Assembly: GCA_036339465.1 (NCBI GenBank) | Contig: JAYZAY010000064.1 | Span: 21,664-85,663, forward strand | Direction of reading: 5' to 3' | Origin: Myxococcota bacterium | GTDB taxonomy: Bacteria; Myxococcota; XYA12-FULL-58-9; JABJBS01 | DNA: 64,000 nt | Shown here: one piece after another, positions 12,701 to 61,443 of the stretch | Numbering within the stretch: position 1 is the first letter of the stretch | How the letters are laid out: the number at the start of each line of letters is the position of its first letter | Notes under the pieces: generated by a model | What the model was told of the DNA's origin: nothing | Seen by the model: the letters and a program-made list of their open reading frames with translations, nothing else | Databases searched by the model: none | Made by a program: the position numbers and the translations under genes

Positions 12701-12751
12701 CGGATGGCCTATGCCCGTAACCTCCCGGCCTCACAACCCTCCCGCCATTAA
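9743..12751 (+). CDS. Multidomain protein: receiver-like N-terminus, acidic repeat linker, coiled coil, DUF4388-like domain, DnaJ-like C-terminus
   Basis: Receiver-like start (VLVLND...LQKAGY); Glu/Lys/Gln heptads ~aa 350-570; ITGRIDF...LFSWESGEF...LILEGIRR (DUF4388-like); DYFTILGL...AYEVL...R (J-like). Confidence 0.75.
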   Translation: MAKNVLVLNDADNSLGELIQALQKAGYTAYSSDNADACIDLFDEIKPKALYMSLLTIGVLDSLQVIRMDPDGANITIAFLGTGKEGIKNDKAAKARGGDAFYKFPPDISSILGDTRKWIGAGEKDAPLPTLSGGEPPLEEAPPPTEEAVEPPPEETGAEETLAEAADQLLEEITEELPPAPEPEDSTVAKATAESAQEDEIVPLAEKIPKLEETPSEKKPGAEAPSTTDSSATEDAATVSPATEDAAPDSPVTEDAAPDSTVTKAAAPDSTAIDSPATEDAAPDSTETDSTAIDSPAIEDAAPETSTESPESTSATETPPRESGTASTEGTPTTEPSAPTETAPSPKAEAQIQELKERLEKVQNELGVFKQLAEVAEQDLTSQKEQVEKLMEDVSTLESDKASLEEKRKEEETLRQVSHEALEESKKASIAIAEQLNDETKRREGLEKELEKSNQDIGKLRSEISNLQQHQSQLEHSQANTSDSLNKLRNSLEEEQARAQKSQKDAVDTIHFLKEEREKLTRELEDLHRDLNSKNDRSRLREQQYSLEREKIITDIRKQTEDNIRNELVQQARYRSLYKELHPEWDGAPPDVILSDWRQVKTDISSHRHYANPATSSMTPLHGVPPVPGPSLPGQPERHPRPGDELTGTQLKAPVPSNGHLDGPNDIALLFTKFWWEQITGRIDFLRGSEQKVIYLQSGKPIDAYSNQPGDSLAHYLMRRGKLSRNQYLQAQPIPPRGTRTQAASLAEMGLLKPEELVACVSDHLREIVWSLFSWESGEFTYYFENPDGSELKTIPEDPRTLILEGIRRKYEYPRQTAVIGPSSTVMKWASGQPGTVPWLPSQFQDARILKRFDGKHTLSDIVLETGMPSDMIYPLAITLYTLGTLELRIRGTETSQVTMDPKIQSMEFSRIQNKLEEIRQADYFTILGLTPRATPFEIDAAFRQVMNDFSPTAFTPQTSEKEQGSMAEISRGIHEAYEVLKNDRLRMAYARNLPASQPSRH
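10438..10652 (+). repeat. Degenerate coding repeats (TEDAAPDS-type) in the acidic linker
   Basis: Recurring agaagacgccgcacc(g/a)gactcg units. Confidence 0.85.
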
Positions 12752-12852
12752 GTTTGGCGTCGACTTTTCACCAAAAAACGCTGAAGATATAAGGAGAACT
12801 TGACGCACTTAGCCGATGGTGTCATGGCGGTCGTTAAAGGAGTTTGCTAATC

Positions 12853-13437
12853 ATGGCGATACGAAAAATTTGTATTTGGCCGGATCCTGCCCTCGCAGAG
12901 ATTGCACAGCCCGTCACACAGTTTGATTCAGAGCTTAAAACACTCGTCTTAGATCTGTTTGATACCATGTATGAAGCGAACGGGGTCGGTTTGGCCGCAA
13001 CCCAGGTGGCCGTGAATTTAAGGGTGCTCGTAATCGACCTGGACCCCAATAACTCGGCCGAGGACGACCCAGAAGTTCAAGAGGAACTTGAGTCATTTAA
13101 TTACAACGGCCCAAAAGAATTTATCAACCCTGAAATCCGACGAAAAGAGGGTAGTCTTACCTGGGAAGAAGGTTGCCTCTCGGTCCCCGGCTATACCGAC
13201 AAAGTCGAACGAGCAGAACATGTAACCGTGCGCGCCCAAAACCGAGAAGGCGAAACATTTGAACTGGCTGCTTCTGGACTCTACGCCGTAGCCATTCAAC
13301 ATGAAATGGACCATCTCGTGGGTAAGGTTTTCGTGGAATATTCCTCCCGAATGAAACGCGACATGGCCAGGAAGAAAATGGTCAGACTGAAAAGCTCGGG
13401 CATCGATGACGGCGTGGTCGCCGCCGCCAACCTTTAA
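12853..13437 (+). CDS. def: Peptide deformylase
   Basis: GVGLAATQ, EGCLS, QHEMDH; aaaggag RBS upstream; adjacent to fmt. Confidence 0.97.
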   Translation: MAIRKICIWPDPALAEIAQPVTQFDSELKTLVLDLFDTMYEANGVGLAATQVAVNLRVLVIDLDPNNSAEDDPEVQEELESFNYNGPKEFINPEIRRKEGSLTWEEGCLSVPGYTDKVERAEHVTVRAQNREGETFELAASGLYAVAIQHEMDHLVGKVFVEYSSRMKRDMARKKMVRLKSSGIDDGVVAAANL

Positions 13438-14547: not shown

Positions 14548-14877
14548 ATGAGTGACTCTGATTTAAAAACATTTAAAATTGGTGATACCCATCAACCGAC
14601 GGTTGCTGCCTCTGCTTCCCATCGGGCATCACAAGCCGCAAAAGGGAAGCCAACCGTGGGCTTCCCTAGACTCGAAAAGCTATTGGAAACGGAAACGGCC
14701 GAAACCGTCGACACAAAAATGAACGCAATCTTAACCAATTTGGGCAATTTAGAATCCCAAGCCGACAGCCCCAAAGAAAAAGCGTGCGCTAAAAGAGCGA
14801 CAGCAGCAGTATCTCAAGCCCATGAAATGCTTATATTTCTTTACGAAACCAAAAGCCTGGTGACACCCGGTGGCTGA
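14548..14877 (+). CDS. Small helical protein; candidate YscE/PscE-like needle co-chaperone
   Basis: Two predicted helices (RLEKLLETE...LTNL; KRATAAVSQAHEMLIFL) resembling YscE as I recall it; first gene of the T3SS cluster, directly before the needle-like gene. Confidence 0.45.
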   Translation: MSDSDLKTFKIGDTHQPTVAASASHRASQAAKGKPTVGFPRLEKLLETETAETVDTKMNAILTNLGNLESQADSPKEKACAKRATAAVSQAHEMLIFLYETKSLVTPGG

Positions 14878-14989
14878 AAAAAGTCAAAGCCCCTGTATTT
14901 TTTAACCGAAAGCCTTCGGGCTTGCTAATGTCACTACGAGCGACGAAAATTCAACAAAGCTCAAAGAACTGAAACCACGGAGTTTTGCA

Positions 14990-15469
14990 ATGACAAACAT
15001 TAAGAACAATTCAATAGGCAACCAAGTAGACGTCAACAAAAGCCGTGCTCGACAAACACAGAATGCATCAAAGAGCTTTGCTTCAGCAGTAGCCAATACA
15101 ACTGCGGGGGTAGCACGCTCTGTGGGTGCCGTGGTACCTGGAGGCTCTATCTTAACTGCTGCAGCTAGTTCCATTCAAAACTCTGTCGGTTCACCTAACG
15201 CACGAAATGTAAGCTTGGCTGGAACAACTACAACATCCTCAACCAATGACACATTTTCCGCAGTCAACGAGCTCGCTGCAAGCGGCGACTCTTCTGCCAC
15301 AATGTTTAACGCTACCAAAGAGCTACAAGAACTCAACCAGCAATTTAACCTAGAATATTTGAATCTCCAGCAAGAAATGCAGGGAGAAAACCGAAAATTC
15401 AGTGCTATTTCTAACGTCATGAAAACCAAGCATGACACTGCCAAGGGTATGATTCAGAACGTACGATAA
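14990..15469 (+). CDS. Candidate T3SS needle/filament subunit (SctF-like) with a long Ser/Ala/Thr-rich N-terminus
   Basis: C-terminus YLNLQQEMQ...SAISNVMKTKHDTAKGMIQNVR matches the needle-protein terminal pattern (SNxxKxxxDxxxxIIQNxR); followed by a strong terminator. Confidence 0.55.
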   Translation: MTNIKNNSIGNQVDVNKSRARQTQNASKSFASAVANTTAGVARSVGAVVPGGSILTAAASSIQNSVGSPNARNVSLAGTTTTSSTNDTFSAVNELAASGDSSATMFNATKELQELNQQFNLEYLNLQQEMQGENRKFSAISNVMKTKHDTAKGMIQNVR

Positions 15470-15495
15470 TGCCAAACAGTGTACGTCGCTCACTC

Positions 15496-15539
15496 CAAAC
15501 GCCGCAGGTCGCTCATGCCACCTGCGGCGTTTGTGTTTT
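15496..15539 (+). terminator. Rho-independent terminator after the needle-like gene
   Basis: Perfect 14-bp stem caaacgccgcaggt / acctgcggcgtttg, 10-nt loop, followed by tgtttt. Confidence 0.85.
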
Positions 15540-15619
15540 AACGGTACCTGTTTTAAAATTCTCCTGAGACCGCTAACGCATCGACCAGTGAACTGGCCCC
15601 GACGTAAGGACTAATTTAA

Positions 15620-16042
15620 ATGACAGATACGATATCGGATATAATTCAAGGAATAGTTCCCATCGAGCAAAAAGACCTAAGTCTACTTCTGGAGATAGGT
15701 TATTTCTACCTGGAGTTACAGAAGTTTAAAGAAGCGGAGGAAATTTTTAATGGAGTCGCAGCTTTGATCCCTCACAGCGAAATCCCGCACATAGCCTTGG
15801 GACATCTTTATTTTTCCCAAGGTCACTTCAACCCCGCACTCAAAGCCAATAAAGCAGCCGTTCTGCTCAATACAGAGTCCGCGCCGGCCCACGCAGCTGT
15901 TGGAGAAGTCCTCTTCTTCCTAAAAAAACCGGACGACGCAGTGACCGCGCTCAATAAAGCAATCCAATGTTCACCAGAAAGCCCTGCCGCAGAATTCGCT
16001 CAAGCGTTGCTTCACGCGAATGAAGTCGGCGTATTTGGTTAA
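15620..16042 (+). CDS. Three-TPR protein; candidate YscG-like T3SS chaperone
   Basis: TPR patterns (GYFYLELQKFKEAEEIF, LGHLYFSQG, VGEVLFFLKKPDDA); located directly after the needle-like gene. Confidence 0.65.
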   Translation: MTDTISDIIQGIVPIEQKDLSLLLEIGYFYLELQKFKEAEEIFNGVAALIPHSEIPHIALGHLYFSQGHFNPALKANKAAVLLNTESAPAHAAVGEVLFFLKKPDDAVTALNKAIQCSPESPAAEFAQALLHANEVGVFG

Positions 16043-16062
16043 TCGGTTAGAAGGAGTGAGCT

Positions 16063-16536
16063 ATGACAAAGGTTGGGGGCGGACCCAAGCCGCCGGTTCA
16101 AGTACCCATTCATGAACAAACGGGTAAAGCAGAGGAGCAAAAAGAGACAGCTAAAGGAGACGCTAAGGGGGCCCAAGTTCAGCGAGACCGATTCGAGGCA
16201 TCTCGCTCTCCCCTAGCAAATCGCCTCCAAGCTCTCCAAGCACAACGGGGGACGGCCAAGCTACAATTCAGTAACGCTGAAATGGCCGAGTTGGTGAAAA
16301 CTTTCGGCGCGATCCTTAAACAGAACCCACAAGCAGACCGAAAAAAGAGAGCAAAATTGTTCGCGGAAGCATTGCTCAAGAAAAAGAAGAAATTTAAGAA
16401 ATTCTTCAGTTCTGCTGCAGAACAAGATCTCGAAAACCTCTTTGATGCCATAGCCGAGCAACTAGAGAGTTCACCTGTCTTTGCGCAGTTGGTTGACGAC
16501 GTATCCGAAGAGTCCATTAAATTCGCAGGGAGTTGA
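16063..16536 (+). CDS. Hypothetical protein in the T3SS cluster (disordered N-terminus, helical C-terminus)
   Basis: aaggag RBS; co-oriented; its stop lies 4 nt before the sigma-factor start. Confidence 0.7.
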   Translation: MTKVGGGPKPPVQVPIHEQTGKAEEQKETAKGDAKGAQVQRDRFEASRSPLANRLQALQAQRGTAKLQFSNAEMAELVKTFGAILKQNPQADRKKRAKLFAEALLKKKKKFKKFFSSAAEQDLENLFDAIAEQLESSPVFAQLVDDVSEESIKFAGS

Positions 16537-16540
16537 TATC

Positions 16541-17293
16541 ATGAGTGGTTCACCCAGCTCCAATGCTCCAAGTAAAACAACCCAAGGCAAAGGGGCCAAA
16601 AAGAACATGGATTTCACCAATTCAAGGGCTGTGGTAGAGCAATACACTCCCTATGTTCGGTCAATCGCCACCAAAGCAAGCAGAAATCTTCCACCCGACA
16701 TCGAACTTGATGACTTGGTCGGATATGGAATGGTCGGACTTCTCGAAGCAGCCCAGCGATTCGATCCAGAAGCGGGTGCCAATTTCATGACATTTGCGTT
16801 CTACAGAATCAGGGGGGCCGTGTATGATGGCCTTCGTAGCATGGGTTGGATGAGCCGCACAGAATACGCCAAGGCCAGATTCGAAGAACGAGCCAACGAA
16901 TATTTGGCCGCACTTGCCTTTGCCGAGGAAACAGGGGCTCAGGCTCCCGAAAATCCATTTGAAATTGCAGTGGAAGATTTGGCGGCGGCTGTTGAGGGTC
17001 TTGCTGCGGTATACCTTACCGCCATCGACGGAACGGAAGGACTCCAACTCGAAGATGATAAGAATCCCAAACCAGATGAGAAACTTGGACTTGAGCAAGC
17101 TCGATCTCTGGTTAGAAAGACAATTTCTAAGCTTGGTGGCCAAGAACGAACCCTAATGGAACTCTACTATTACAGTGAAATGAGTCTGCAAGAAGTCGGT
17201 GAAAAACTCGGACTCTCTAAAAGCTGGACAAGTCGGTTGCATAAACGAGTTATCGAAAAACTAAGACGGATATTGGATGACGAATTAGGCTAA
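16541..17293 (+). CDS. fliA: FliA/WhiG-family (sigma-28-like) RNA polymerase sigma factor
   Basis: Region 2 DDLVGYGMVGLLEAAQRFDP and YRIRGAVYDGLR; region 4 LYYYSEMSLQEVGEKLGLSKSWTSRLH. Confidence 0.88.
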   Translation: MSGSPSSNAPSKTTQGKGAKKNMDFTNSRAVVEQYTPYVRSIATKASRNLPPDIELDDLVGYGMVGLLEAAQRFDPEAGANFMTFAFYRIRGAVYDGLRSMGWMSRTEYAKARFEERANEYLAALAFAEETGAQAPENPFEIAVEDLAAAVEGLAAVYLTAIDGTEGLQLEDDKNPKPDEKLGLEQARSLVRKTISKLGGQERTLMELYYYSEMSLQEVGEKLGLSKSWTSRLHKRVIEKLRRILDDELG

Positions 17294-17419: not shown

Positions 17420-17917
17420 ATGGACCCCGTCGGTGGTGGAATAGGCAAAGCAGCTGCGGCGCTTATGAAAGAAATGCAGCAGGTACAACAACAAGCCGAG
17501 CAAATGCAGGAAGCTCAACAAACACAGCAAGTTGACAGTGCACAATTTCAGCAAGCCATGCAAGATCAACAGGGCCCAGAGAACGTAAATAAGACCAACG
17601 CGGTACAACCCACTCCCCAAGGCTCAAGTATTCTCTCTCAAGTACACGCTTCAGGGGCCAGTCCCTCCCAAGCAATTGGGCAAACCGAAAGAGTCGAAAA
17701 GACTCAAGTTGCTCAAATGCTTGAAGGTTTAGCAGATGGGCAGCAAGAGATGAATAACATCATGGAAAAAGCTCTATCTGGCGATAAACTATCAAGCCAA
17801 GAACTCCTCGCCATGCAAGCTAAGATTTACCGATTTACCCAAGAAATGGAGATCACATCTAAAGTTGTCGAAAAGAGTACCAGTGGCCTCAAGCAAACCA
17901 TGAACACTCAGGTTTAA
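17420..17917 (+). CDS. sctI: T3SS inner-rod protein, YscI/HrpB-like
   Basis: C-terminus LSSQELLAMQ..IYRF..EMEITSKVVEKSTSGLKQTMNTQ; immediately upstream of sctJ; ggagg RBS. Confidence 0.7.
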   Translation: MDPVGGGIGKAAAALMKEMQQVQQQAEQMQEAQQTQQVDSAQFQQAMQDQQGPENVNKTNAVQPTPQGSSILSQVHASGASPSQAIGQTERVEKTQVAQMLEGLADGQQEMNNIMEKALSGDKLSSQELLAMQAKIYRFTQEMEITSKVVEKSTSGLKQTMNTQV

Positions 17918-18041: not shown

Positions 18042-18947
18042 ATGGGACTAAAGATAATGCGACCAAAGCGACTTAGCCAAAAGATCAAGAATCGGAATCA
18101 TTACTTATCAAGACTCACCCTGCTCCTGGGCGCCATGACATTCTCCACTGCGTGTGCGCCAGAAACCATTATTCATGACATCGGTGAACGAGAAGCAAAT
18201 ACGATTCTTGAGCTCCTAGCCGACCACGATATTCAAGCAAATAAACTAATGAAGAGCGATGGCCGAACAACCAAATTTGACGTCCTAGTCAATTCAGATA
18301 AAGCTATGAGCTCTATTAGACTGCTCAATCAATACGAATTACCAAGACGTGCTGACAAAGGCTACGCTGACGTCTTTGGGGAAGGTGGCCTCATCCCTAC
18401 GTCATCAGAAGAAAAAGCCAAAGAACTGGCCGCGCTCGAAGGTGAAATTCAAAAGCAACTCAAATTGGTGGATGGTATCCTCGATACCGAAGTCAATCTG
18501 GTCATCCCTGAAAACAATCCACTGCGTAACAACGAAGAGCAACAACCTACCCCCACCGCAAGTTTGACCATCCGATACCTACCGGGTAAAGGCGGAAGTA
18601 AACCCATCACGGAACAACAAGTTCAGGTGCTTGTATCTGCGGCTGTCGAAAATCTAAGTGCGGACAAAGTCTTTCCGCTCATGACCCCTGTCACCATCGG
18701 CTACAAAACAGAAGGACTAAGGGATGATCGCGATTCAGTAAAAGGCTCATGGATAGGGCGACTCGATAAAAAGACAGTGAACATTTTAACCATCCTAATC
18801 ACCGTATTATTCGTCGTACTCGCAAGTCTACTTGTCGTTTCCCAATTACGACTAAATAACGTCCGCGGTCGCTTGCTCCGACTCCAAAACGAAATCGCCA
18901 ATGCACGGAAAAGACAGTCCGGGGACAGCCTGCCCCCAGCCAGCTGA
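18042..18947 (+). CDS. sctJ: T3SS inner-membrane ring lipoprotein
   Basis: Lipobox-like FSTAC, EREANTI, GGLIPTSSEEKA, GILDTEVNL, VSAAVENL, C-terminal TM helix; short YscJ type rather than FliF; exact start uncertain. Confidence 0.9.
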   Translation: MGLKIMRPKRLSQKIKNRNHYLSRLTLLLGAMTFSTACAPETIIHDIGEREANTILELLADHDIQANKLMKSDGRTTKFDVLVNSDKAMSSIRLLNQYELPRRADKGYADVFGEGGLIPTSSEEKAKELAALEGEIQKQLKLVDGILDTEVNLVIPENNPLRNNEEQQPTPTASLTIRYLPGKGGSKPITEQQVQVLVSAAVENLSADKVFPLMTPVTIGYKTEGLRDDRDSVKGSWIGRLDKKTVNILTILITVLFVVLASLLVVSQLRLNNVRGRLLRLQNEIANARKRQSGDSLPPAS

Positions 18948-18970: not shown

Positions 18971-20014
18971 GTGCACCCGTTTTTCCATCCACTAACTCCC
19001 TATGAAACCATGCAACTCCTGACCTCTTTGGCTGTTGCTGGTCCCGAGGCTGTAGAACTTTTACGTTTTATCCCCGAGGAACAAAGAGAACGAATCAACG
19101 AAAAAGCAACGTCACTGCTCAAACTTGAAGGTGAAAAACGGATCCCGTTTGTCGTCTCGCAGCTCAAAGAACTCTTAAGTGGAGACAATATCGGCTTCGA
19201 CAAAATCGAGCCAAGCTGGATTTTGGATGAATTACTGGAAGAAGAACCTATTTCTATCGGAATTCTCCTTATAACCCTGCCACCAAACACCACCAAAATC
19301 TGTATCAAGATGCTCCCAGATACAATTCGTGAACAACTTCCACCAAGATCTGCCGTCATCGAAACCCCGCCCCTGGTTCAAAAAGCAGCACTTCGACAAT
19401 TCGAATCGCGCTTTACCCCAATGCCTTGTTTTGGCGCTTTGAGAGAGTTTCAGTTCCAAGACCTCCTCCGATTAGAAAGTTCCGATTGGCATCAACTTTT
19501 AAACGTTATTGGTAAAGTCGAGGTCGGTCAGGCATTCGTGTCAGTAGGTAAAATGGCTTTGGTTGATTTCTGCCGACAGCTTTCAGCCACAGACGCAGAA
19601 AATCTGCTCGCAACGGTCAAACGACACCCAGAAATGACCCCTGAAGAAATCAAAACCGGACAAAGATTTCTCTCCCGAATTGCTGGCTCCTTTAAGGCAA
19701 TGGATGAACTCTTTTCGTGTGCGAGTTTGTGGCGTCTTGCCAAAGCCACCTATGGAGAACCGAAACGATTCACCCAACAAATAGCCCTGCGAATACCGAG
19801 AAAGTGGGGAATCCAATACCTAGACTATCTCGAGAAAATACCAGAAATGGATGACCTAAACCCCCAAGATTTTTTAAACTATCAGGATTCAATCCTCATT
19901 GAGCTCATTCATCTAATCCATAACCAAGCCATCAATTTTCAAATGGGAAAAGCAAATATTGTGATGAATACGCCCGATCGCTACAAGAATGCCAGTACTG
20001 CGAATGACAATTAA
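18971..20014 (+). CDS. FliG-like / SctK-position sorting-platform adaptor
   Basis: Lies between sctJ and sctL; segments resembling FliG N, M (EEPISIGILL vs EHPQTIALIL) and C (FQFQDLLRL vs FxFEDLxxL). Confidence 0.6.
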   Translation: MHPFFHPLTPYETMQLLTSLAVAGPEAVELLRFIPEEQRERINEKATSLLKLEGEKRIPFVVSQLKELLSGDNIGFDKIEPSWILDELLEEEPISIGILLITLPPNTTKICIKMLPDTIREQLPPRSAVIETPPLVQKAALRQFESRFTPMPCFGALREFQFQDLLRLESSDWHQLLNVIGKVEVGQAFVSVGKMALVDFCRQLSATDAENLLATVKRHPEMTPEEIKTGQRFLSRIAGSFKAMDELFSCASLWRLAKATYGEPKRFTQQIALRIPRKWGIQYLDYLEKIPEMDDLNPQDFLNYQDSILIELIHLIHNQAINFQMGKANIVMNTPDRYKNASTANDN

Positions 20015-20059: not shown

Positions 20060-20722
20060 ATGGGAAAAGTAATTAAAAAAGGAATCGGAGACGACACAGG
20101 GTTTCAGGACCTCGTTTCCACCGATGAACCAACACGGCGAGCACCAATCATCGAGCGCGCTACAGTCGAAGCAAAAGATGAAGCTTCCGAAATTATAACG
20201 AAAGCCAAAAGTGAAGCCGAACAAATCATTCAAGCGGCAGAAGAAAAAGCAAAACACCTTGAGGCAGAAGCCCATGAACGCGGTTTTTCTGAAGGCAAAG
20301 AAGAAGGGGCATCCCAGTTACTCGAAACCGTAACCAAAGCCAGTAAGAGGATCCAGCAGACCGAAGACGCTCTTTCCAAAAACATTAAGGATCTGGCGAT
20401 TGGCATAGCCAAAAAGATCTTGGGTCAAGAGCTACAATCAAATCCTGATGCTGTGGTGGCACTTGTTAAACAAGCCCTCACCGACAAGGCGAGACAACGT
20501 AAAGAAATCAGCTTACGAATAAATCCAGAGGATTTGGAACACATCCGATCCAGTAGAAGCGAACTTCTTGAAGTATTAAGCCGTTGCCGCGAAATCTCAA
20601 TTAGGGAGGATCCAGACGTAGCGCGGTTTGGAGTCATTATAGAAACAGAAGCGGGTACCATTGATGCCCAATTAGAAACTCAGCTAGAGGCAATTCAAAA
20701 TGTTCTCAGAGCGATGCCCTAA
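20060..20722 (+). CDS. sctL: T3SS stator protein FliH/SctL
   Basis: AxxxA and GxxxG repeats (ERGFSEGKEEG), LRINPEDL, GVIIETEAGTIDA. Confidence 0.92.
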   Translation: MGKVIKKGIGDDTGFQDLVSTDEPTRRAPIIERATVEAKDEASEIITKAKSEAEQIIQAAEEKAKHLEAEAHERGFSEGKEEGASQLLETVTKASKRIQQTEDALSKNIKDLAIGIAKKILGQELQSNPDAVVALVKQALTDKARQRKEISLRINPEDLEHIRSSRSELLEVLSRCREISIREDPDVARFGVIIETEAGTIDAQLETQLEAIQNVLRAMP

Positions 20723-20737
20723 AGCCGAGAACAAAAA

Positions 20738-22078
20738 ATGAGTGACGGAGCACCTATCATCGACATTAATCAATATCTCCAAGCGATCGAACAAGCCGAA
20801 ACGGTTTCTGTTCGGGGCCGAGTTCTAGAGGTTACTGGACTGGTTATTAAGGCCCTGATCCCCGGAGTCCGAATTGGTGAAATGTGTTACGTCGATACGG
20901 GAATCGGCAATAGAATCGTCTGTGAAGTCGTCGGATTTCAAGACGAAAATGTGATGCTCATGCCCCTTGGGGAAGCACACGGTATTGGCCCAGACAGCGA
21001 AGTTTTAGCTACAGGAAGACCTTTCTCAGTTCGATGTGGTTGGGGCCTCCTAGGACGCGTTCTAGATGGCTTAGGACGACCTATTGATGGTGGCCCTGCC
21101 CTAGATGACCTTCCCGATCTCGTGGATTGGCCGGTGGAACGTGAAGCCCCAGACCCCATGAAACGAATGCGAATTACCGAGAGTATCGCCATGGGAGTTA
21201 GAGCCATCGACGGACTTTTAACCGTCGGTCTAGGCCAAAGAGTTGGGCTTTTTGCCGGTTCCGGGGTTGGCAAATCGACTCTCATGGGCCAGATCGCCAG
21301 AAATACTGAAGCTGAAGTTGTTGTCGTCTGTCTCATTGGTGAGCGGGGTCGTGAAGTAAGAGACTTTATAGAAGAATCCCTAGGCGATGAGGGTCTCCGA
21401 AAGGCGGTTCTAATTGTGGCGACCTCAAATACCCCCTCCTTGGTTCGCTTAAAGAGCGCTTTTATTTCCACCGCAATTGCCGAATGGTTTAGGGATCAGG
21501 GAAAGAAAGTTCTCTTTATGATGGACAGCTCAACCCGATTTGCACGTGCTCAACGCGAAATAGGTCTAGCCATAGGAGAGCCACCCGCCCGGCAAGGCTA
21601 TCCACCGAGCGTATTTTTTCAGATCCCTAGGCTCATGGAACGCACCGGTAACAATGAGACGGGTTCAATCACGGCCCTCTATACCATTTTGGTTCAAGGC
21701 GGAGATATGGAGGAACCTATCGCTGATGAAGTGCGCGGTATCCTAGACGGCCATATTATCCTTAATCGAGAGCTGGGCGCACGAAACCACTGGCCCGCTA
21801 TCGATATACTGCCTTCTCTTTCCAGAGTCATGAATGGAGTTGCCGGTGACCAACACAAAGCGGCGGCCGCCAAGTTACGAGAAGTACTAGCAACCTACGA
21901 AAAACAGCGGGATCTTATTCTCCTCGGAGCATACCAATACGGTACAGACACAAAAACAGATTATGCCATCGACAAAATCGAAGAAGTCGAAGCATTCCTT
22001 AGACAAGGCATGCTTGAATGCGACGATTTTGAAACAACCGTTCATAAGCTAGCCAGCATGTTCACAGACGTAATGTAG
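20738..22078 (+). CDS. sctN: T3SS export ATPase
   Basis: Walker A AGSGVGKS, GERGREVRDF, MDSSTRFARAQREIGL, GYPPS, ILDGHI. Confidence 0.96.
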   Translation: MSDGAPIIDINQYLQAIEQAETVSVRGRVLEVTGLVIKALIPGVRIGEMCYVDTGIGNRIVCEVVGFQDENVMLMPLGEAHGIGPDSEVLATGRPFSVRCGWGLLGRVLDGLGRPIDGGPALDDLPDLVDWPVEREAPDPMKRMRITESIAMGVRAIDGLLTVGLGQRVGLFAGSGVGKSTLMGQIARNTEAEVVVVCLIGERGREVRDFIEESLGDEGLRKAVLIVATSNTPSLVRLKSAFISTAIAEWFRDQGKKVLFMMDSSTRFARAQREIGLAIGEPPARQGYPPSVFFQIPRLMERTGNNETGSITALYTILVQGGDMEEPIADEVRGILDGHIILNRELGARNHWPAIDILPSLSRVMNGVAGDQHKAAAAKLREVLATYEKQRDLILLGAYQYGTDTKTDYAIDKIEEVEAFLRQGMLECDDFETTVHKLASMFTDVM

Positions 22079-22097
22079 GGTGAATTGAGTTAACTCC

Positions 22098-22592
22098 ATG
22101 GCCAAAAAACAAGAATATCGACTACAAGCGCTATTGGAAATCCGGAAACGCACCAAAGAGGACAAAGAACAAGAACTCGGTCAGTGCCTACAACGTTTGG
22201 AGACAGAAAAAGACAGCCTCGCCGGAATGAAGAAAAAATTAGAGGAAATGCTCCAAGACCGCGAACGAAGAGCAAAAGAATACGCCGATAAGCAGATGCG
22301 TGGCGAGATGAGCGCCCAAGCAATGACCGGAGCCCAATCTTACCTGAAAAGACTGAAAGAGAGTGAGGCCATCCAAGAAGAACTTATTCGAGATCAAGAA
22401 TCGGTGATTCGCCAAAGGCAAGATGAAGTTCAAGCAGCAAGAGAAATACTCTTAGAAGCAACCCAAGAACTAAAAAGCCTAGAGAAACACAAGGAAAAAT
22501 GGGAAAAAAAGGTCAAGAAAGAAAGACAAGCCAAGGAAGAACAAGAGCAAGAACAATTGGCACAGGCTATCTTTTTAAATAGGGAGAAATAA
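22098..22592 (+). CDS. sctO: T3SS stalk protein FliJ/SctO
   Basis: YRLQALLEIR N-terminus, all coiled coil, LEKHKEKW; directly after the ATPase. Confidence 0.85.
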   Translation: MAKKQEYRLQALLEIRKRTKEDKEQELGQCLQRLETEKDSLAGMKKKLEEMLQDRERRAKEYADKQMRGEMSAQAMTGAQSYLKRLKESEAIQEELIRDQESVIRQRQDEVQAAREILLEATQELKSLEKHKEKWEKKVKKERQAKEEQEQEQLAQAIFLNREK

Positions 22593-22743: not shown

Positions 22744-23586
22744 ATGAGCGACCGAGTCCAAGACCGCCGTGAAGCACAAATAACAGAGCAAAAACGCCTG
22801 GAAAAGGAAACATCGAAAAAAGACACACAGAAGTCTTCAGACCGAAAATTCTCACAGACAATGAAAAATGCTGCCTCCGAAACCACAACCAGATCAAACC
22901 AACCTCCAAGTACAAATCGCCCTAAAGGGGCAGCCAGCAAGAATAGCAGCGCGCAAGCGCTCGCAGCGCGCAAGGGAATTGCTTCGCAAAAATTCAGTGA
23001 CACTCTCTTTGGAACAGGAGAGAAAAACCTAAATTACTCCAAAGACTTAAGTAGCAACAGGGCCGAGCAAAAAGATCAAGAAAGACTCGAATTCAACGAT
23101 TCGAAGCAACAAGACTCCGTTAAGGAGCTGAACGAGAATGACCCACTGGCCGCAATAAGTGAGAGGCAAAGTCAATCAGGACAGGGGGGCAGTTTCGGGC
23201 AACCCCACGACGAGGGCCACCAACCTGAGACAGGTAGCCTAGACACAATCGATAACATAGGAAATCCGTCTGGCACCAAAAACGTGAAGCAAAGTCAGGG
23301 CGCTGGCCAAGCAGGTCAAATCCCACCCGCTATCCTTGAAAAACTCGTCAACCAAGTAATGGCCGGTGTGGATGAAATAGGCCAACCCCAATTCATCATC
23401 GAACTTAACCAAGAAACTTTGCAGGGTGCAAGAATCGAGATCAAACGGGCTGAAGACGGCATCGAGATAATATTCACGAGTCCTCACAAAGATATCCAAA
23501 ACCTGATTAAATCAAATGAAAATCGACTACATCGAGCATTTCACCACCGCGGGCTCAACCTTAATAAAGTCTCTGTGAGTAGCTAA
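22744..23586 (+). CDS. sctP: FliK/SctP-like length-control (ruler) protein
   Basis: Low-complexity polar N-terminus plus T3S4-like C-terminal domain (IELNQETLQGARIEI...IEIIF...LHRAF..RGL); located between sctO and sctQ. Confidence 0.7.
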   Translation: MSDRVQDRREAQITEQKRLEKETSKKDTQKSSDRKFSQTMKNAASETTTRSNQPPSTNRPKGAASKNSSAQALAARKGIASQKFSDTLFGTGEKNLNYSKDLSSNRAEQKDQERLEFNDSKQQDSVKELNENDPLAAISERQSQSGQGGSFGQPHDEGHQPETGSLDTIDNIGNPSGTKNVKQSQGAGQAGQIPPAILEKLVNQVMAGVDEIGQPQFIIELNQETLQGARIEIKRAEDGIEIIFTSPHKDIQNLIKSNENRLHRAFHHRGLNLNKVSVSS

Positions 23587-23726
23587 TCACTCCACTTCTC
23601 ATCCTCTATCTACCATTCACTAAACATCTCAATTTGCCCCCGAGCTCTTCAATGATATAAGGCTTGGCGTTGGACAGAGTGGGCTGATGCCCATGATAAT
23701 TTTCAGACGAAAGAAATGGACAAAAC

Positions 23727-24986
23727 ATGGATTCGGTTAGAGCCTACCAATTCCATAATCTCCCCAAATACAATCGCCTTGAAGCGGGATTACTCGAAAC
23801 ATCTAGCGTGTTTCTTTCTAATAATCTTTTTGGACCAAGCCTCCTCCAAGCAATCCAAAGCAAGCTGGGTGAACTTGTCCGAACCTCCGTCCAACTTACA
23901 AACTCCCCTCCAACCCTACTTAAAGGCACCGAAGTCAGCCAGTTACTACCGGAACAAGGCTGCTTCATGCATTTACAGTGCAACCCTACGACTGAGCGGA
24001 TCCTAGTGGACATTGATGCCGGTTTGGCACTGGGGTGGATCGATGCAATGTTCGGTGCCCAAGTCAAAATAACCCCTGTACAACGACCACTTAACGAAAT
24101 CGAAAGAGGAGCATTCTCGTACATCATTCTAAATGTTCTAGCTGAAATTCATTCCGGTTGGTCGCACGGACCGCAATTGTCCCTGAGCTTAATGGAGACG
24201 TTCAGTTCTCGAAAAAACGCCATGACCACGTTAGACCTAAACGGAAACCATTTCCACCTAGGAATCACCATCGCTTTTGCCAAAAGCCTTGGCTATATTC
24301 GGCTATTTGTGCCCACAAGCTTGATGTCGGAACTTGCAACTTGGGCCTTACTGGATCAGGTCTCTCATGATTCACTCAGCTTTCGAAGAAAACGAGCTGC
24401 GATGCTTCATGATCTAGATTGTAAAGCGCGCTGTGAAATTGCTCGGATTGGCCTAAGTATTGAGGAGCTAAAAAACTTGGAACGTGGGGATATTATTATC
24501 CCCGAAGACCATGGCATTAGTCTTGGTCCTAACGGACCATCCGGAGACCTGCAAATTAGACTGGGGCGAGGTCAAAACGGCTACCTCCAGACCCAATTAA
24601 TTCCAGATTCCGGACAATTAAAATGTGCCATTCAATCGATCATTATACATGAACAACCCAATGAGGTTCCCATGGACGAAGACCAAATATTAAACGAAAC
24701 AAACGGTGAAATGGTGGAAAACCCTGCCCACAACGACAATCTAGAGCAAACCGAGGGACTTCTTAATGATATCCAATCTCCCGTAGTCGTTGAGCTAGGC
24801 CGACTCAATTTGAATGCGGGTCAGGTGATTCGCCTCAAGGAAGGACAAATTCTTCGCCTCCCTCGAGCCGCCACTGATCCGGTCGATCTCGTCGTCAATG
24901 GTCGCGTCTTCGCCCGGGGGCAACTTGTGGAAGTCGAGGGAGAGCTGGGTGTTCGAATCCTTCAGCTCGCTGGCTCTCAATCCTAA
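23727..24986 (+). CDS. sctQ: T3SS cytoplasmic ring protein SctQ (FliM/FliN-like, two SPOA domains)
   Basis: LSIEELKNLERGDII and VVVELGR...LKEGQIL...VNGRVFARGQLVEVEGELGVRI. Confidence 0.9.
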   Translation: MDSVRAYQFHNLPKYNRLEAGLLETSSVFLSNNLFGPSLLQAIQSKLGELVRTSVQLTNSPPTLLKGTEVSQLLPEQGCFMHLQCNPTTERILVDIDAGLALGWIDAMFGAQVKITPVQRPLNEIERGAFSYIILNVLAEIHSGWSHGPQLSLSLMETFSSRKNAMTTLDLNGNHFHLGITIAFAKSLGYIRLFVPTSLMSELATWALLDQVSHDSLSFRRKRAAMLHDLDCKARCEIARIGLSIEELKNLERGDIIIPEDHGISLGPNGPSGDLQIRLGRGQNGYLQTQLIPDSGQLKCAIQSIIIHEQPNEVPMDEDQILNETNGEMVENPAHNDNLEQTEGLLNDIQSPVVVELGRLNLNAGQVIRLKEGQILRLPRAATDPVDLVVNGRVFARGQLVEVEGELGVRILQLAGSQS

Positions 24987-25004: not shown

Positions 25005-25601
25005 ATGAAAACATTGGTGCTTGCCCTAGGGCTCATCATGGGAACGCTGGCAGGGCCTGCTTCCTCTACTGAAGCAGTGAAGTCTCCTAAAGTCCTCTCT
25101 AAGGGCGAAAAGGCCACATCACCAAATATTGCCCCTAAGGCACCAAGTGGAAAACCAGACCAGTCACCTGCTCCAGCACCGAGCCCACCCCCAAGTTCTT
25201 ACGACATATCCAAAGAAAATGCCGGACAGGTCTCTAAAGCCAATGAAGAAACTGATAATGATTTTGGTACCGCTCTTTTGAAGATGATTATTTCCCTTGG
25301 GGCGGTCCTGGCTTTGCTCATCATCATCGGCAGGGTTTTTCGGGGGAAATTAAAGTACTTTGGCTTCCCCGGCCAAACAAACGACATGAAATTGTTGACT
25401 CGCTTACCACTGGATAGCAAACACGTCCTTTTCGTGGTTGAAGTGGGTTCCAAGAACAAGTTACTTCTTGGCGGCGGTAACGGAAGCCTTTCTTTATTGA
25501 GAGAGTTCTCTTCAGAAGAAACCGACAGGTTGGCTTCCTCAGAGCCCGTTCAGGCAAACATCGAAACGGGATCACTACATCCTCGTGTAAAGGAAGCATA
25601 G
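25005..25601 (+). CDS. fliO: FliO-like export-gate assembly chaperone
   Basis: N-terminal signal and Pro-rich segment, TM helix LKMIISLGAVLALLIII, FliO motif MKLLTRLPLDSKHVLFVVEVG..LLLG...LSLL; directly before sctR. Confidence 0.75.
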   Translation: MKTLVLALGLIMGTLAGPASSTEAVKSPKVLSKGEKATSPNIAPKAPSGKPDQSPAPAPSPPPSSYDISKENAGQVSKANEETDNDFGTALLKMIISLGAVLALLIIIGRVFRGKLKYFGFPGQTNDMKLLTRLPLDSKHVLFVVEVGSKNKLLLGGGNGSLSLLREFSSEETDRLASSEPVQANIETGSLHPRVKEA

Positions 25602-25607
25602 GCTATT

Positions 25608-26402
25608 ATGAAACGACTCTGGAACACGATGAACTGGGCAATAGCCTTGACAATGCTGCACTGGATGGACGCTGCACCCGCCTTGGCTGTGAAAAAGGGG
25701 GCTGACGCCCTCGGCTCAAATAGCCTTGCGAATCGACCCTTAATTCTTCTAACCGCCCTAGCCGGCCTCGCTCTCGTACCATTTGTTCTAATAATGGTCA
25801 CTTCGTTCGTAAAAATTGCGGTGGTGCTCTCCATCGTGAGACAGGCCGTGGGAACTCAGCAAATCCCTCCAACGCAAGTCATTACCGGGTTGGGAATCGT
25901 TCTTACCGTCTACATTATGATGCCAGTGGGACTGGAAGTCTATCACAACGCCCAGGAGAGAATGCTTCAGGAATCGCCCAAGGGCGAAAGTATGAAAATG
26001 AGCGACCTTACGGTGCAACAAGCTCTAGACCTCGCCAAGGAGGCAGAAGGCCCAATGAAAGGTTTTCTGGTAAAACATGCCCATTTGAAAGATCGGGACA
26101 TGTTCTACAAACTCGCTTGGAGAATGAGAAAACCGCGAGATAGAGCAACGCTTTCCGACCAAGATTGGGCCATCATTATTCCTGCCTTCGTCATCAGTGA
26201 ACTCAAGGAAGCCTTTCAAATTGGGTTCATTCTATTCGTCCCGTTCTTGGTGGTCGACATGGTCGTCGCCAACATACTTATGGCCCTGGGTATGCAGATG
26301 CTCTCGCCAACAACGATATCCCTCCCATTCAAAATCCTCTTATTCGTAATGGTCGATGGATGGTACCTAATAACCAAGGGCCTTGTGATAGGATATCAGT
26401 GA
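25608..26402 (+). CDS. sctR: Export apparatus FliP/SctR
   Basis: TSFVKIAVVLSIVRQAVGTQQIPP, PAFVISELKEAFQIGF, LGMQMLSPTTISLPFK, VDGW. Confidence 0.96.
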   Translation: MKRLWNTMNWAIALTMLHWMDAAPALAVKKGADALGSNSLANRPLILLTALAGLALVPFVLIMVTSFVKIAVVLSIVRQAVGTQQIPPTQVITGLGIVLTVYIMMPVGLEVYHNAQERMLQESPKGESMKMSDLTVQQALDLAKEAEGPMKGFLVKHAHLKDRDMFYKLAWRMRKPRDRATLSDQDWAIIIPAFVISELKEAFQIGFILFVPFLVVDMVVANILMALGMQMLSPTTISLPFKILLFVMVDGWYLITKGLVIGYQ

Positions 26403-26409
26403 GGAACAT

Positions 26410-26688
26410 ATGGACCAGGAAGTCATAGAGTTTATCATTCGAATTACCAACGAAGCCCTATTGATGATTATCGTGGTTTGCGGACCGCCCATTCTTCTTA
26501 GTATGATCGTGGGGCTCTTAATTTCACTCTTTCAAGCGGTTACCCAACTTCAAGAACAGACCCTCACCTTCGTCCCTAAGATGATCGTTATCTTCGGGGT
26601 TCTCGCTGCTCTGGGACCTTGGCTTGGGGGAACACTTTTGACCTTTGCGCAAAAGTGCTTCTCCGAATTCCCAAAATACTTATTTTGA
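26410..26688 (+). CDS. sctS: Export apparatus FliQ/SctS
   Basis: GLLISLFQAVTQLQEQTLTFVPK. Confidence 0.96.
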   Translation: MDQEVIEFIIRITNEALLMIIVVCGPPILLSMIVGLLISLFQAVTQLQEQTLTFVPKMIVIFGVLAALGPWLGGTLLTFAQKCFSEFPKYLF

Positions 26689-26704
26689 TACTACGACGAA
26701 GCGC

Positions 26705-27535
26705 ATGGAAGACTTTCTAATAAAAGCCAGAGAACTCCTAAGTTACACCACGGAGCTTATGACCTTCGCTTTGTTGATAGGTCGTACCATGCCAATGATC
26801 GTTCTAACCCCCTTTCTCGCTGGCAAGATCGCTCCCACCGAACTCAAGATGGGCTTGGGAATCTCCCTAAGCCTACTTATTTGGCCCGTGGCTACCGCAG
26901 GTATGACAGGGCAACTCGTTTACGCTCCGGGCCCCTTTCTCTTACTGATGCTGAAAGAAACCTTCATCGGTTTCGCCATAGGATTTGTCAATGCACACAT
27001 CTTTTATGCCATGGAAATGTCCGGTCGTATCATTGACACTGTACGGGGGGTTTCCATGTCCGAGGTCCAAGTTCCCCATTCTCAACAGCGTGCAACCCTA
27101 ACCGGGAGTCTCTACTATCAATTACTCTTAATCGTATTTTTTGCGGCCGGGGGTCACCATGTGTTTTTCAATGCATACTTTGATTCGTATTTAACAATTC
27201 CTATCAACGAAGGAATTGCCACCGGACTGGGCCTCACCGCACTCACCGACTTCATCGCCAAATTGACTGGGGATATACTTACCATCGCCGTCAGATTGGC
27301 AGCACCCATTATCGCAGCCACATTAATTACGGACATCGTTTTCGGGATTCTAAACCGCGTTGCCCCGCAACTTAACGCATATTTCATGTCTATGCCCGTA
27401 AAGGCTCTCGGGGGCGTGATCGTCATATTCATTGCATTCTCGGCTGTGCTTGCAAGCTTCAATGAGTTTACAATATGGGGCTCCGAAGCAATGAGAGATA
27501 TAATCGCATATTTCTCAAAAACCATAGGCATGTAA
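26705..27535 (+). CDS. sctT: Export apparatus FliR/SctT
   Basis: LKETFIG, GRIIDTVRG, LAAPI, GILNRVAPQLNAYFMSMPVK. Confidence 0.94.
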   Translation: MEDFLIKARELLSYTTELMTFALLIGRTMPMIVLTPFLAGKIAPTELKMGLGISLSLLIWPVATAGMTGQLVYAPGPFLLLMLKETFIGFAIGFVNAHIFYAMEMSGRIIDTVRGVSMSEVQVPHSQQRATLTGSLYYQLLLIVFFAAGGHHVFFNAYFDSYLTIPINEGIATGLGLTALTDFIAKLTGDILTIAVRLAAPIIAATLITDIVFGILNRVAPQLNAYFMSMPVKALGGVIVIFIAFSAVLASFNEFTIWGSEAMRDIIAYFSKTIGM

Positions 27536-28651
27536 ATGTCAGACGGCGGTACAGGCGAAAAAACGGAAGAGCCAACCCCGGAGAGGCTTAGAAAACTCCG
27601 AGAAGACGGGAATGTATCCAAAAGTCAGGACGTCACTTCGGCCGTTTCGTTCTTAGTGGTCTTTTGTGTTCTAGCGGGCTCTTTTGGTTTCATCGCTGAG
27701 GAAATCCGTGAGCTGATTGATATAGCATTGATTGGGTTTACCTCGCAGGAAGCCCCCGGAGTTCTTGCCAATCGACTCTTGATGCAGGGAATGATCACCC
27801 TTGGGAAATGCTGCGCCCCTGTGCTAGCCGCTGCATTTATCTTGGGTATTTCCATGAACTTGGCGCAGGTAGGCTTTCTCTTCACTCTGAAGCCCATCAC
27901 ACCAGACATCAAAAAAATTAACCCAATCCAGGGCTTCAAGAACTTAGTGAATATGAAGAAGCTCGTGGAACTCCTTAAAACAATTATAAAATTTACCGCA
28001 ATCAGTATCATTTCGTACTTCGCCCTGAATGACGCAATGCGTGACGTCATTTTAACTATCCGAAGTGACCTCACTATTGGTATGTTGGTTACCGGCGAAA
28101 TTATCTGGGACTTTTGTATCAGAATTGGCGCCGTATTCGTGGTAATTGCGTTGGCAGACGCACTTTACCAAAAAAAGAGGTATATTAAAGATAATAGGAT
28201 GTCGAAATATGACATCAAACAAGAATATAAACAGTCGGAAGGTGACCCCCAGCTTAAAGCCGAGAGGAAACAGCTGCACCGAGAAATGGCCAACGGCTCC
28301 GGTCAAAAGGGAGCTGTAAAAAAGGCGGACGTCGTCGTGAGAAACCCAGATCACATAGCTGTAGCCATCAAGTACAATAAAGAAACAGACGACGCTGCCC
28401 CAACCGTCGTCGCTAAGGGTGAGCGTATTTGGGCGGAGAAAATCCTCGAAGAAGCAAGGCACTACGGGGTTCCAATTGTTCGAAACGTGCCTTTGGCCCA
28501 AGCACTTAATAAAGTAGACGTCGGAAACGAAATCCCCGAAGAACTCTACGATGCGGTAGCTGAAGTGTTGAATTTTGTTTACACCCTTGCAGAAGAGCAA
28601 CAAAATAAGGGTAAAAAGAAACTCCCGAGAGGTAAGAGAAATGGCCAATAA
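27536..28651 (+). CDS. sctU: Export switch protein FlhB/SctU
   Basis: GEKTEEPT..RL...REDG, KINPIQG, EYKQSEGDP, NPDH cleavage-loop variant, PIVRNVPLAQAL. Confidence 0.95.
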   Translation: MSDGGTGEKTEEPTPERLRKLREDGNVSKSQDVTSAVSFLVVFCVLAGSFGFIAEEIRELIDIALIGFTSQEAPGVLANRLLMQGMITLGKCCAPVLAAAFILGISMNLAQVGFLFTLKPITPDIKKINPIQGFKNLVNMKKLVELLKTIIKFTAISIISYFALNDAMRDVILTIRSDLTIGMLVTGEIIWDFCIRIGAVFVVIALADALYQKKRYIKDNRMSKYDIKQEYKQSEGDPQLKAERKQLHREMANGSGQKGAVKKADVVVRNPDHIAVAIKYNKETDDAAPTVVAKGERIWAEKILEEARHYGVPIVRNVPLAQALNKVDVGNEIPEELYDAVAEVLNFVYTLAEEQQNKGKKKLPRGKRNGQ

Positions 28652-60867: not shown

Positions 60868-61443
60868 ATGTCCCTATTAAAAATAGCACAAATCGGGCAC
60901 CCGATACTCAGAACCAAGGCTCAGCCACTCACCTTGGAAGAGTTAGCAAGCCCAGAGATTCAACTATTTATCGACAATTTAGTCGAAACAATGAGAGACG
61001 CAAGGGGAGCAGGATTAGCGGCCAATCAGGTCCATAAGCCAATTCAGATTTGCGCCATCGAGGTCCAGGACAATCCGCGGTACCCTTACAAACCCAATAT
61101 ACCCCTGACAATCCTGGTAAACCCCACCATAAAGGTACTCAACCAAGATACCTTCCAGAATTTCGAAGGATGTCTCAGCGTTTCCAATCTCAGAGGCATC
61201 GTCGAAAGATATCTCGGCATCGAAATACAGTTTTGGAACCGTAAGGGTCGCCAAGAAACTCTCGAAGTACGAGGTCTCACAGCGGGCACCTATCAACACG
61301 AAGTGGACCATCTTGAAGGCCGGATTTTCCTAGATAGAGTTTCAGATTCCACCAGTCTCTGTACGTGGCAACATTTTGAGACTTACCACCGAGAAAACTT
61401 CGAAAAACAGGCGCGTTCACTGGTGGAAAAATATGGCAGCTGA
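60868..61443 (+). CDS. def: Peptide deformylase, second paralogue
   Basis: GAGLAANQ, EGCLS, QHEVDHL. Confidence 0.95.
   Translation: MSLLKIAQIGHPILRTKAQPLTLEELASPEIQLFIDNLVETMRDARGAGLAANQVHKPIQICAIEVQDNPRYPYKPNIPLTILVNPTIKVLNQDTFQNFEGCLSVSNLRGIVERYLGIEIQFWNRKGRQETLEVRGLTAGTYQHEVDHLEGRIFLDRVSDSTSLCTWQHFETYHRENFEKQARSLVEKYGS

Follow-up and report, generated by a model that had tools for sequence, protein, structure and literature searches.

It has long been asked how the flagellum gave rise to injectisomes, and SctK is so far the only protein of their sorting platform without an accepted flagellar ancestor. A stretch of 64,000 nucleotides (nt) from a Myxococcota bacterium (assembly GCA_036339465.1, contig JAYZAY010000064.1), referred to here as the window, raises this question anew. 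It contains a gene cluster for a non-flagellar type III secretion system (T3SS) in which the gene between sctJ and sctL, the slot of sctK, encodes a protein resembling FliG. What is this protein, and does it still act as part of a motor? It is near certain to be a genuine FliG homologue occupying the SctK slot; it most likely works as a static adaptor, and it may illustrate the change of a rotating motor component into a fixed connector. The available text of a 2014 review gives the SctK counterpart as "FliG (?)" (Abrusci et al. 2014, PMC4045390), and the 2020 paper on the structure of PscK, finds no structural neighbour; SctK has been published as a novel fold without a flagellar counterpart. 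A conserved, FliG-related and PscK-like protein that lacks the torque charges and sits in the SctK slot would connect these observations with one made in 2012, which is taken up below.

The gene is the sole long frame at its position and encodes 347 residues. Its GTG start lies 23 bases past sctJ, with an AAGG about 10 nt upstream, and is confirmed by the homologues, which begin with MHPFF where the window protein has VHPFF. The gene and the domains of its product are as follows.

18971..20014, + strand: FliG-like protein in the SctK position (open reading frame (ORF), translation, homologues, hhalign against canonical FliG, AlphaFold2 model)
18971..19186, + strand: N domain, a shortened FliG_N (residues 1-72; hhalign E 1.8e-5)
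19187..19420, + strand: M domain, FliG_M with E-x-P in place of EHPQ (residues 73-150; hhalign E 1.1e-11)
19421..19696, + strand: C1 domain, an xFxF motif plus a FliG_C-like helical domain (residues 151-242; hhalign E 3.1e-10)
19697..20011, + strand: C2 domain, a second, weaker FliG_C-like domain with GLW..LA and QRLPR motifs (residues 243-347; hhalign against FliG_C)

The family of this protein is conserved, carries no annotation and comes from genomes of uncultured Myxococcota/"Bdellovibrionales". A word-indexed search returned 56 proteins at E<=0.001 among 3,556 candidates, every one of them metagenomic, and the few named homologues are each called "hypothetical protein" and come from metagenome-assembled genomes of Myxococcota or Deltaproteobacteria. 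An exhaustive search with phmmer brought up 197 representative clusters at E<=0.001, of which 71 remain at 1e-10 and 19 at 1e-30. Three alignments were used: a core alignment of the window protein and 33 full-length homologues spread down the list of 56 (34 sequences); a broad alignment of the window protein and 97 of the 150 listed representatives, from which short fragments and forms of more than 400 amino acids (aa) were excluded (98 sequences); and a canonical alignment of E. coli FliG, the genome's own FliG and 21 of 120 listed homologues (23 sequences). The core alignment has 42 invariant columns and a mean column identity of 56%. The word "relic", used in a preliminary description of the gene, is therefore unfit. 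The window protein is the most divergent member of the core alignment at several otherwise conserved positions, such as I94, T215 and T223. The family also includes long forms of 529-763 aa, in which the FliG_C match falls near residues 134-207.

Kinship with FliG emerges from family profiles. The window protein alone matches no Pfam family at E<=0.01; it reaches 14.6 bits (E 0.04) on PF01706 FliG_C, whose cut-off is 23.3, and 11.7 bits on TIGR00207, whose cut-off is 226.7, and it has no match to PF14841 or PF14842. The flagellar FliG of the same genome, for comparison, scores 124.8, 76.4 and 75.7 bits on the FliG Pfam models. A phmmer comparison of the window protein with H. pylori FliG gives 6.6e-4. 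In the core alignment, Pfam at E<=0.1 finds FliG_M in 33 of 34 members, FliG_C in 26, MgtE_N in 11 and FliG_N in 8; in the broad alignment, at E<=1, the counts out of 98 are 83 for FliG_C, 81 for FliG_M, 70 for MgtE_N and 24 for FliG_N. Among 43 distant representatives screened at E<=0.001, 32 carry FliG_M and/or FliG_C, one FliG_N alone, and ten nothing. The canonical alignment matches the core alignment by hhalign with a probability of 97% (E 1.2e-10) and the broad one with 99.3% (E 2.9e-20, 281 columns), and the family profiles reach solved FliG chains at 1e-6 (core) and 6.9e-20 (broad). A FliG profile match was thus found by hhalign, by Pfam on the members and against chains of the Protein Data Bank (PDB), and the FliG-N, FliG-M and FliG-C resemblances named in the preliminary description all hold when the family profile is used. 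The N, M and C domains are homologous to those of FliG at the superfamily level, yet the protein stays below the curated FliG cut-offs.

The layout of these domains follows the N, M, C order of FliG (PF14842, PF14841, PF01706; 3HJL, 1LKV, 4FQ0, 1QC7), and the length is close to that of E. coli FliG (347 versus 331 aa). The claim of a full three-domain FliG stands as regards homology of all three domains, but not as regards their extent: the N domain is about 40 residues short, and there are two FliG_C-like domains. In the hhalign comparison of the canonical and broad alignments, residues 6-63 pair with residues 2-58 of E. coli FliG, whose residues ~59-100 are left without a counterpart. At the C-terminal end two registers are obtained. 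In the first, given by HMMER, Pfam and piecewise hhalign, residues 160-240 correspond to the FliG torque domain, the Gly-Gly linker and ARM_C (E. coli ~191-231) are deleted, and C2 is an added domain. In the second, given by global hhalign with the broad alignment, residues 193-240 correspond to ARM_C and 241-322 to the torque domain. The first register is preferred; in the individually listed members PF01706 falls at approximately residues 160-240, the broad profile matches chain 1qc7 at 6.7e-8, and the xFxF motif sits where FliG has MFXF. In this register the equivalent of the torque helix spans residues 205-219 of C1. The C2 piece taken separately (241-347) matches the FliG C-terminal domain with an E of 5.7e-6, that is, the same FliG domain as C1, and its residues W254, R255, R274, P276, Q305 and D306 are invariant in the core alignment.

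The torque-bearing residues, numbered on E. coli FliG, are R281, D288, D289 and R297. The canonical alignment keeps R, D/E, D/E and R/K at these four positions in 23 of 23 sequences each. According to the profile alignments, the FliG-like family keeps the four charges in neither register, so that their erasure, proposed in the preliminary description, holds whichever is used. In the first register the window protein has T207, A214, T215 and T223 at the equivalent positions. The core family has E in 15 members, D in 13, A in 4, and T and S in one each at R281; L in 21, A in 5, E in 4 and four others at D288; A in 32 with one T and one S at D289; and D in 31 with one each of T, N and E at R297. 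In the second register the window residues are K278, D285, Y286 and N297, and the family has mostly E; S/R/T/Q; Y/F/M/L; and T/S/G/D. The FliM-binding EHPQR motif of the M domain has been altered in a different manner. Its E (E91) is present in 34 of 34 core sequences, its P (P93) in 27, and the position of R160 is basic throughout (K in 33, R in one), but H126 gives way to S, N or E, and at Q128 33 sequences have R and the window protein has I.

The predicted structure leads to FliG as well. AlphaFold2 run on the core alignment gave a confident model, with a mean predicted local distance difference test score (pLDDT) of 89.2 and a predicted template modelling score (pTM) of 0.80. Foldseek against the PDB returned nothing at E<=0.001, and its best 11 rows are all FliG (E 4e-3 to 6e-2); after VIA re-ranking of the structure matches the top 13 rows are all FliG, which stands at the top of three structure searches. 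The M domain superposes on 4fq0 with a root-mean-square deviation (rmsd) of 2.2 A over 77 of 80 residues, and the T. maritima C-terminal domain 1qc7 fits with 2.3 A over 89 of 89 residues, spread over model residues 159-321. Multi-domain FliG chains superpose only domain by domain, and their multi-domain rows have an rmsd of 15-22 A. The predicted M-C1-C2 body is compact and superposes as a single body on monomeric PscK, so that the fold of this SctK protein (6UIE) is a whole-body match of the FliG-like model.

The genomic position of the gene points to type III secretion. According to Pfam and NCBIfam, the cluster runs in the order sigma factor, SctI-like, SctJ, FliG-like protein, SctL, SctN, SctO, SctP-like, SctQ, FliO, SctR, SctS, SctT, SctU. 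Its other parts are the following.

14548..16536, + strand: four conserved upstream genes, namely two small unknowns, a 140-aa TPR protein and a 157-aa unknown (synteny)
16481..17293, + strand: FliA/WhiG-like sigma factor at the head of the cluster (TIGR02479 E 4.7e-47, under the cut-off)
17420..17917, + strand: SctI-like inner-rod candidate (weak matches only, PF17001 E 6e-4 and NF038054 E 4e-3; syntenic in related loci)
18042..18947, + strand: SctJ lipoprotein, 301 aa, with a conserved cytoplasmic tail (PF01514, TIGR02544)
20060..22592, + strand: SctL/FliH, SctN ATPase and SctO (Pfam, NCBIfam)
22744..24986, + strand: SctP-like protein and SctQ (PF02120, PF02154, PF01052)
25005..28651, + strand: FliO and the export gate SctR, SctS, SctT and SctU (Pfam; FliO by PF04347 and TIGR03500)

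Thirteen related loci were examined. sctJ lies directly upstream of the FliG-like gene in all 12 that extend upstream, and sctL is the next recognised T3SS gene in all 10 that extend downstream, once after a 2.7-kb insertion. The SctK position assigned in the preliminary description is therefore borne out in every related locus of sufficient length, and the same sctJ-X-sctL order occurs in two further genomes, including a 9-Mb genome of the same phylum. In that genome (G029; locus L024 11889-14087, minus strand) the slot holds a 732-aa protein, whose match to the FliG-like family is confined to its first 190 residues. Across the 13 loci SctN is 78-83% identical and the FliG-like protein 35-42%, its frame being intact in all aligned loci. 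The order yscJ-yscK-yscL in pYVe8081 presents the same slot. This placement is also flagellar in character, since a fliG gene likewise comes right after a ring gene of the FliF/SctJ family and ahead of a FliH/SctL gene; unlike in the flagellum, however, the ring partner is the 301-aa SctJ lipoprotein instead of FliF, and the FliG-like protein differs from FliG in its additional FliG_C-like domain, its N domain without the second half and its lack of torque charges.

SctV, SctR, SctU and SctN are nearest to non-flagellar NCBIfam models. SctN scores 602 bits on III_secr_ATP versus 592 on FliI_clade2, and in the gate the yscR model passes its cut-off but fliP does not. The gene for SctV lies apart, on contig C59; its product reaches 835.6 bits on hrcV (above cut-off) versus 675.9 on FlhA (below cut-off). 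SctQ combines a FliM-like N-terminal and middle part (TIGR01397 fliM_switch E 5e-16, residues 42-258) with a FliN C-terminal domain, and matches TIGR02551 at E 6.8e-25. In SctJ the lipobox Cys is invariant, and the tail QxRLRxVRGRLLRLQNEIAKARRKP is conserved in 11 sequences. This tail (window 18747-18947, residues ~236-301) is better conserved than the membrane helix that precedes it; canonical YscJ-type proteins are not known to have such a tail. No rod, hook, filament, stator, secretin, needle or SctD family is recognised by Pfam and NCBIfam among the cluster ORFs, a result that leaves room for a very divergent needle protein. Because needle, secretin and SctD are undetected, the label "injectisome" is not established for this system.

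The gene probably encodes an adaptor, descended from FliG, that acts on the cytoplasmic side of a non-flagellar type III secretion apparatus of the Myxococcota type. The proposed model is as follows. The shortened FliG_N-like domain would anchor the protein under the inner-membrane ring, by analogy with the FliF-C/FliG-N contact; since SctD is undetected in the cluster, its likely partner is the cytoplasmic tail of SctJ. A complex prediction of the full FliG-like protein with this tail (residues 264-301), run without controls, scored 0.00 and counts neither way. The FliG_M-like domain, with the E, P and basic residue of EHPQR kept, would hold the FliM-like part of SctQ. Such a contact fits the available account of SpaO, whose N domain is said to resemble the middle domain of FliM, which contacts FliG (Soto et al. 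2022, PMC9907115). As the charged ridge on which MotA acts is gone from both C-terminal domains, C1 and C2 would transmit no torque, and the protein would be a fixed connector, as SctK is in injectisomes. The view of a rotor protein turned static adaptor, advanced in the preliminary description, is supported with corrections: FliG homology, charge loss and the SctK slot stand, whereas we infer the static role, the binding partners and the descent of SctK from such a protein.

Several results weigh against this reading. The C-terminal register is ambiguous (160-240 versus 241-322, with the 1qc7 structural match covering 159-321). PscK is missing both from the listed Foldseek matches and from the chains sent to re-ranking. 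The genome has a flagellum and eight MotB_plug matches, so that stators are available, and needle, secretin, translocon and SctD are not recognised. Sequence kinship with SctK is not significant either (hhalign probability 26-46%). The YscK hidden Markov model gave a best E of 0.017 by hmmsearch among 342 proteins, and SctK Pfam families are absent from the 25 most frequent matches in the 98 members of the broad alignment; when PDB sequences were compared with the broad profile at E<=10, no SctK chain was among the matches listed. Of the SctK families, YscK was the one compared by alignment (11 sequences), OrgA/MxiK, HrpB4 and EscK being outside this comparison. YscK gives an E of 0.24 against the core alignment, which is not significant, and 2.9e-4 with a probability of 40% against the broad one, YscK 63-176 pairing with residues 161-281. 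C2 alone gives 2e-4, a weak collinear match to YscK 141-175 with a reversed control of 0.025; the reversed controls range from 0.025 to 0.16, and canonical FliG against YscK from 0.52 to 0.63. In the weak YscK alignment the invariant G-L and R-L-P motifs of both families coincide.

Among the other explanations, the one that survives best is that the protein is static, as in the adaptor model, but forms a continuous C-ring with the FliM/FliN-like SctQ under SctJ, instead of discrete pods like those of SctK. The N domain and the E, P and basic FliM-binding residues are kept, the FliM-like region of SctQ and FliO are present in the cluster, and SctD, the usual partner of SctK, is not recognised there, all of which such a ring would accommodate. 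Canonical FliG, however, stacks on the ARM_M of the neighbouring subunit via the Gly-Gly linker and ARM_C, and both are deleted in the preferred register. The compact M-C1-C2 body with its pTM of 0.80, which fits PscK as one body and FliG chains only per domain, also argues against a continuous ring, which is left as an unlikely, though not negligible, arrangement.

Much less probable is a working rotor of a second, cryptic rotary machine with a different stator interface. A FliG homologue with a FliM/FliN partner could in principle belong to such a machine, and only one of the eight MotB_plug matches of the genome lies in its flagellar operon. The other seven are on contigs C43, C29, C68, C58 and C20, several as divergent pairs, which suggests multiple stator-like sets in this genome. 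The cluster itself, however, has no rod, hook, filament or stator gene, its export components are nearest to non-flagellar models, and the torque charges are gone in both registers. The FliG-like protein occurs in 28 of 41 genomes, this one included. Nine of these 28 carriers have no canonical FliG_C match at E<=1e-15 and nine no MotB_plug, and in eight neither canonical FliG nor MotB_plug was found, absence from an incomplete genome being read as "not found" (G006, 95% complete; G009, 95%; G012, 100%; G014, 89%; G015, 84%; G017, 97%; G029, 100%; G037, 99%). In these relatives, then, the system exists independently of a flagellum and of a MotB-type stator. That the protein is a decaying leftover without a role, or a bystander unrelated to secretion, is the least credible explanation of all: the window protein falls below every curated FliG cut-off and diverges most at several conserved positions of the core alignment, but the family has 42 invariant columns over 34 sequences, an intact frame in all aligned loci, a confident model (pLDDT 89.2) and a fixed position, though its versions are just 25-42% identical to the window protein.

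The flagellum of this genome is encoded elsewhere. A canonical operon on contig C18 comprises FlgC, FliE, FliF, FliG, FliH, FliI, FliJ, FliK, FlgD, FlgE, MotA and MotB, and its FliG keeps EHPQ, MFTF and all torque charges. The search for motAB suggested in the preliminary description thus did find these genes, but on another contig, in a separate flagellar operon that has a FliG of its own. The operon (L006 1-13988, minus strand) breaks off at the contig end right after motB. Between fliJ and fliK it has a 232-aa ORF (L006 7064-7762, minus strand) with a weak FliG_C-like signal (E 0.018) and no Pfam match at E<=0.01. The genome, 92.8% complete, has one FliP, one FliMN_C gene and one FHIPEP, and no flagellar-type FliM, FliN, FliP, FliQ, FliR, FlhB or FlhA was found in it. 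Given the end of C18 at motB and the completeness value, the single copies are attributed to the assembly, and the missing flagellar export genes are probably a gap in it instead of a sign of a shared export gate. Two FliP matches occur in five of five genomes of the same family (fragmentary in one), and two FlhA in all three flagellated relatives checked. The idea that the cluster serves as the flagellum's own export gate was rejected on these grounds and because two near-complete relatives have the cluster and no flagellar FliG or MotB. In G012 and G017 the only FliP is that of the cluster, and FlhA likewise occurs once.

How the static adaptor relates to SctK itself is a further step. SctK (YscK/PscK/OrgA/MxiK) is about 140 residues shorter than the FliG-like protein and has no FliG_N-like domain; one of its characteristic contacts is with the N domain of SctQ. 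Soto et al. (2022, PMC9907115) describe binding of SctK to the FHA domain of SctD, a protein with no recognised counterpart in the cluster treated here or in two related loci. It is conceivable, though rather less than even in our estimation, that SctK is a trimmed descendant of FliG and that the FliG-like family preserves an intermediate state. In such a state the stator-facing charges would already have been lost and the compact SctK-like shape taken, while the FliF-type anchoring domain would have been kept, with FliM-like SctQ and FliO in use and direct attachment to SctJ before the arrival of SctD. If this is true, rotation was lost earlier than needle and secretin were gained.

The system has a likely published relative. 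The locus has the gene content of the Myxococcales-type non-flagellar T3SS, with gate, ATPase and SctJ present. In the accessible text of the 2012 study, the Myxo systems are early-branching and are reported without FliE, FliG and MotAB (Abby and Rocha 2012, PMC3459982). As described there, they share with the present locus a secretion apparatus, an ATPase, a small inner ring, an inner rod and a delta-proteobacterial/Myxococcota host, and in both the locus is devoid of genes for secretin, needle, rod/hook and MotAB. Unlike the Myxo T3SS as published in that text, the present locus has a FliG homologue, a FliM-like SctQ and FliO. Taxonomy and gene content suggest identity with that group. The literature searched, which left aside subscription journals and supplements, holds no description of the FliG-like family. 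The SPfast preprint alone points the same way, for a chlamydial protein: in its available text, an uncharacterised protein encoded in a sctJ-X-sctL arrangement (cluster A0A0U5EPG3) resembles the FliG and SctK families in structure (bioRxiv 10.1101/2025.03.14.643159). In an Atlas search, the window protein has as its second nearest neighbour a cluster of 288 aa that is mainly chlamydial (score 0.92). The chlamydial protein comes from another phylum, is shorter and was compared by description only, so that its relation to the FliG-like family is a lead only.

Further features accompany the cluster. The sigma factor, predicted to be sigma-28-like, is conserved in this upstream position in those related loci whose upstream sequence matched, 7 of 13. 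The four upstream genes are syntenic in the related loci that reach that far, and Pfam matches only TPR among them. A 159-aa protein (window 14990-15469) conserved with the cluster has a Ser/Thr-rich front, a helical end and no Pfam match; it shows no significant similarity to YscF or to the SctI-like ORF and is a possible export substrate or strongly diverged component of needle or rod. The genes that some related loci have in addition were checked for SctD and secretin, with none found; among them are a K+ transporter, an acetyltransferase and unknowns. The only secretin-domain match of the genome (contig C67 25081-25551) lies within a 1721-aa open frame, unusually long for a secretin. The SctV gene on C59 (L008 3664-5811, minus strand), the sole FHIPEP gene of the genome, is located beside a PP2C phosphatase gene (6032-6799) and three small unknown ORFs, and the second FlhA of the relatives is likewise unlinked. 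Upstream of def-fmt and the cluster, the window encodes a protein of 1002 aa that combines DUF4388 with a DnaJ domain at its C-terminus (9743-12751), and it contains two peptide deformylase genes (12844-13437 and 60868-61443).

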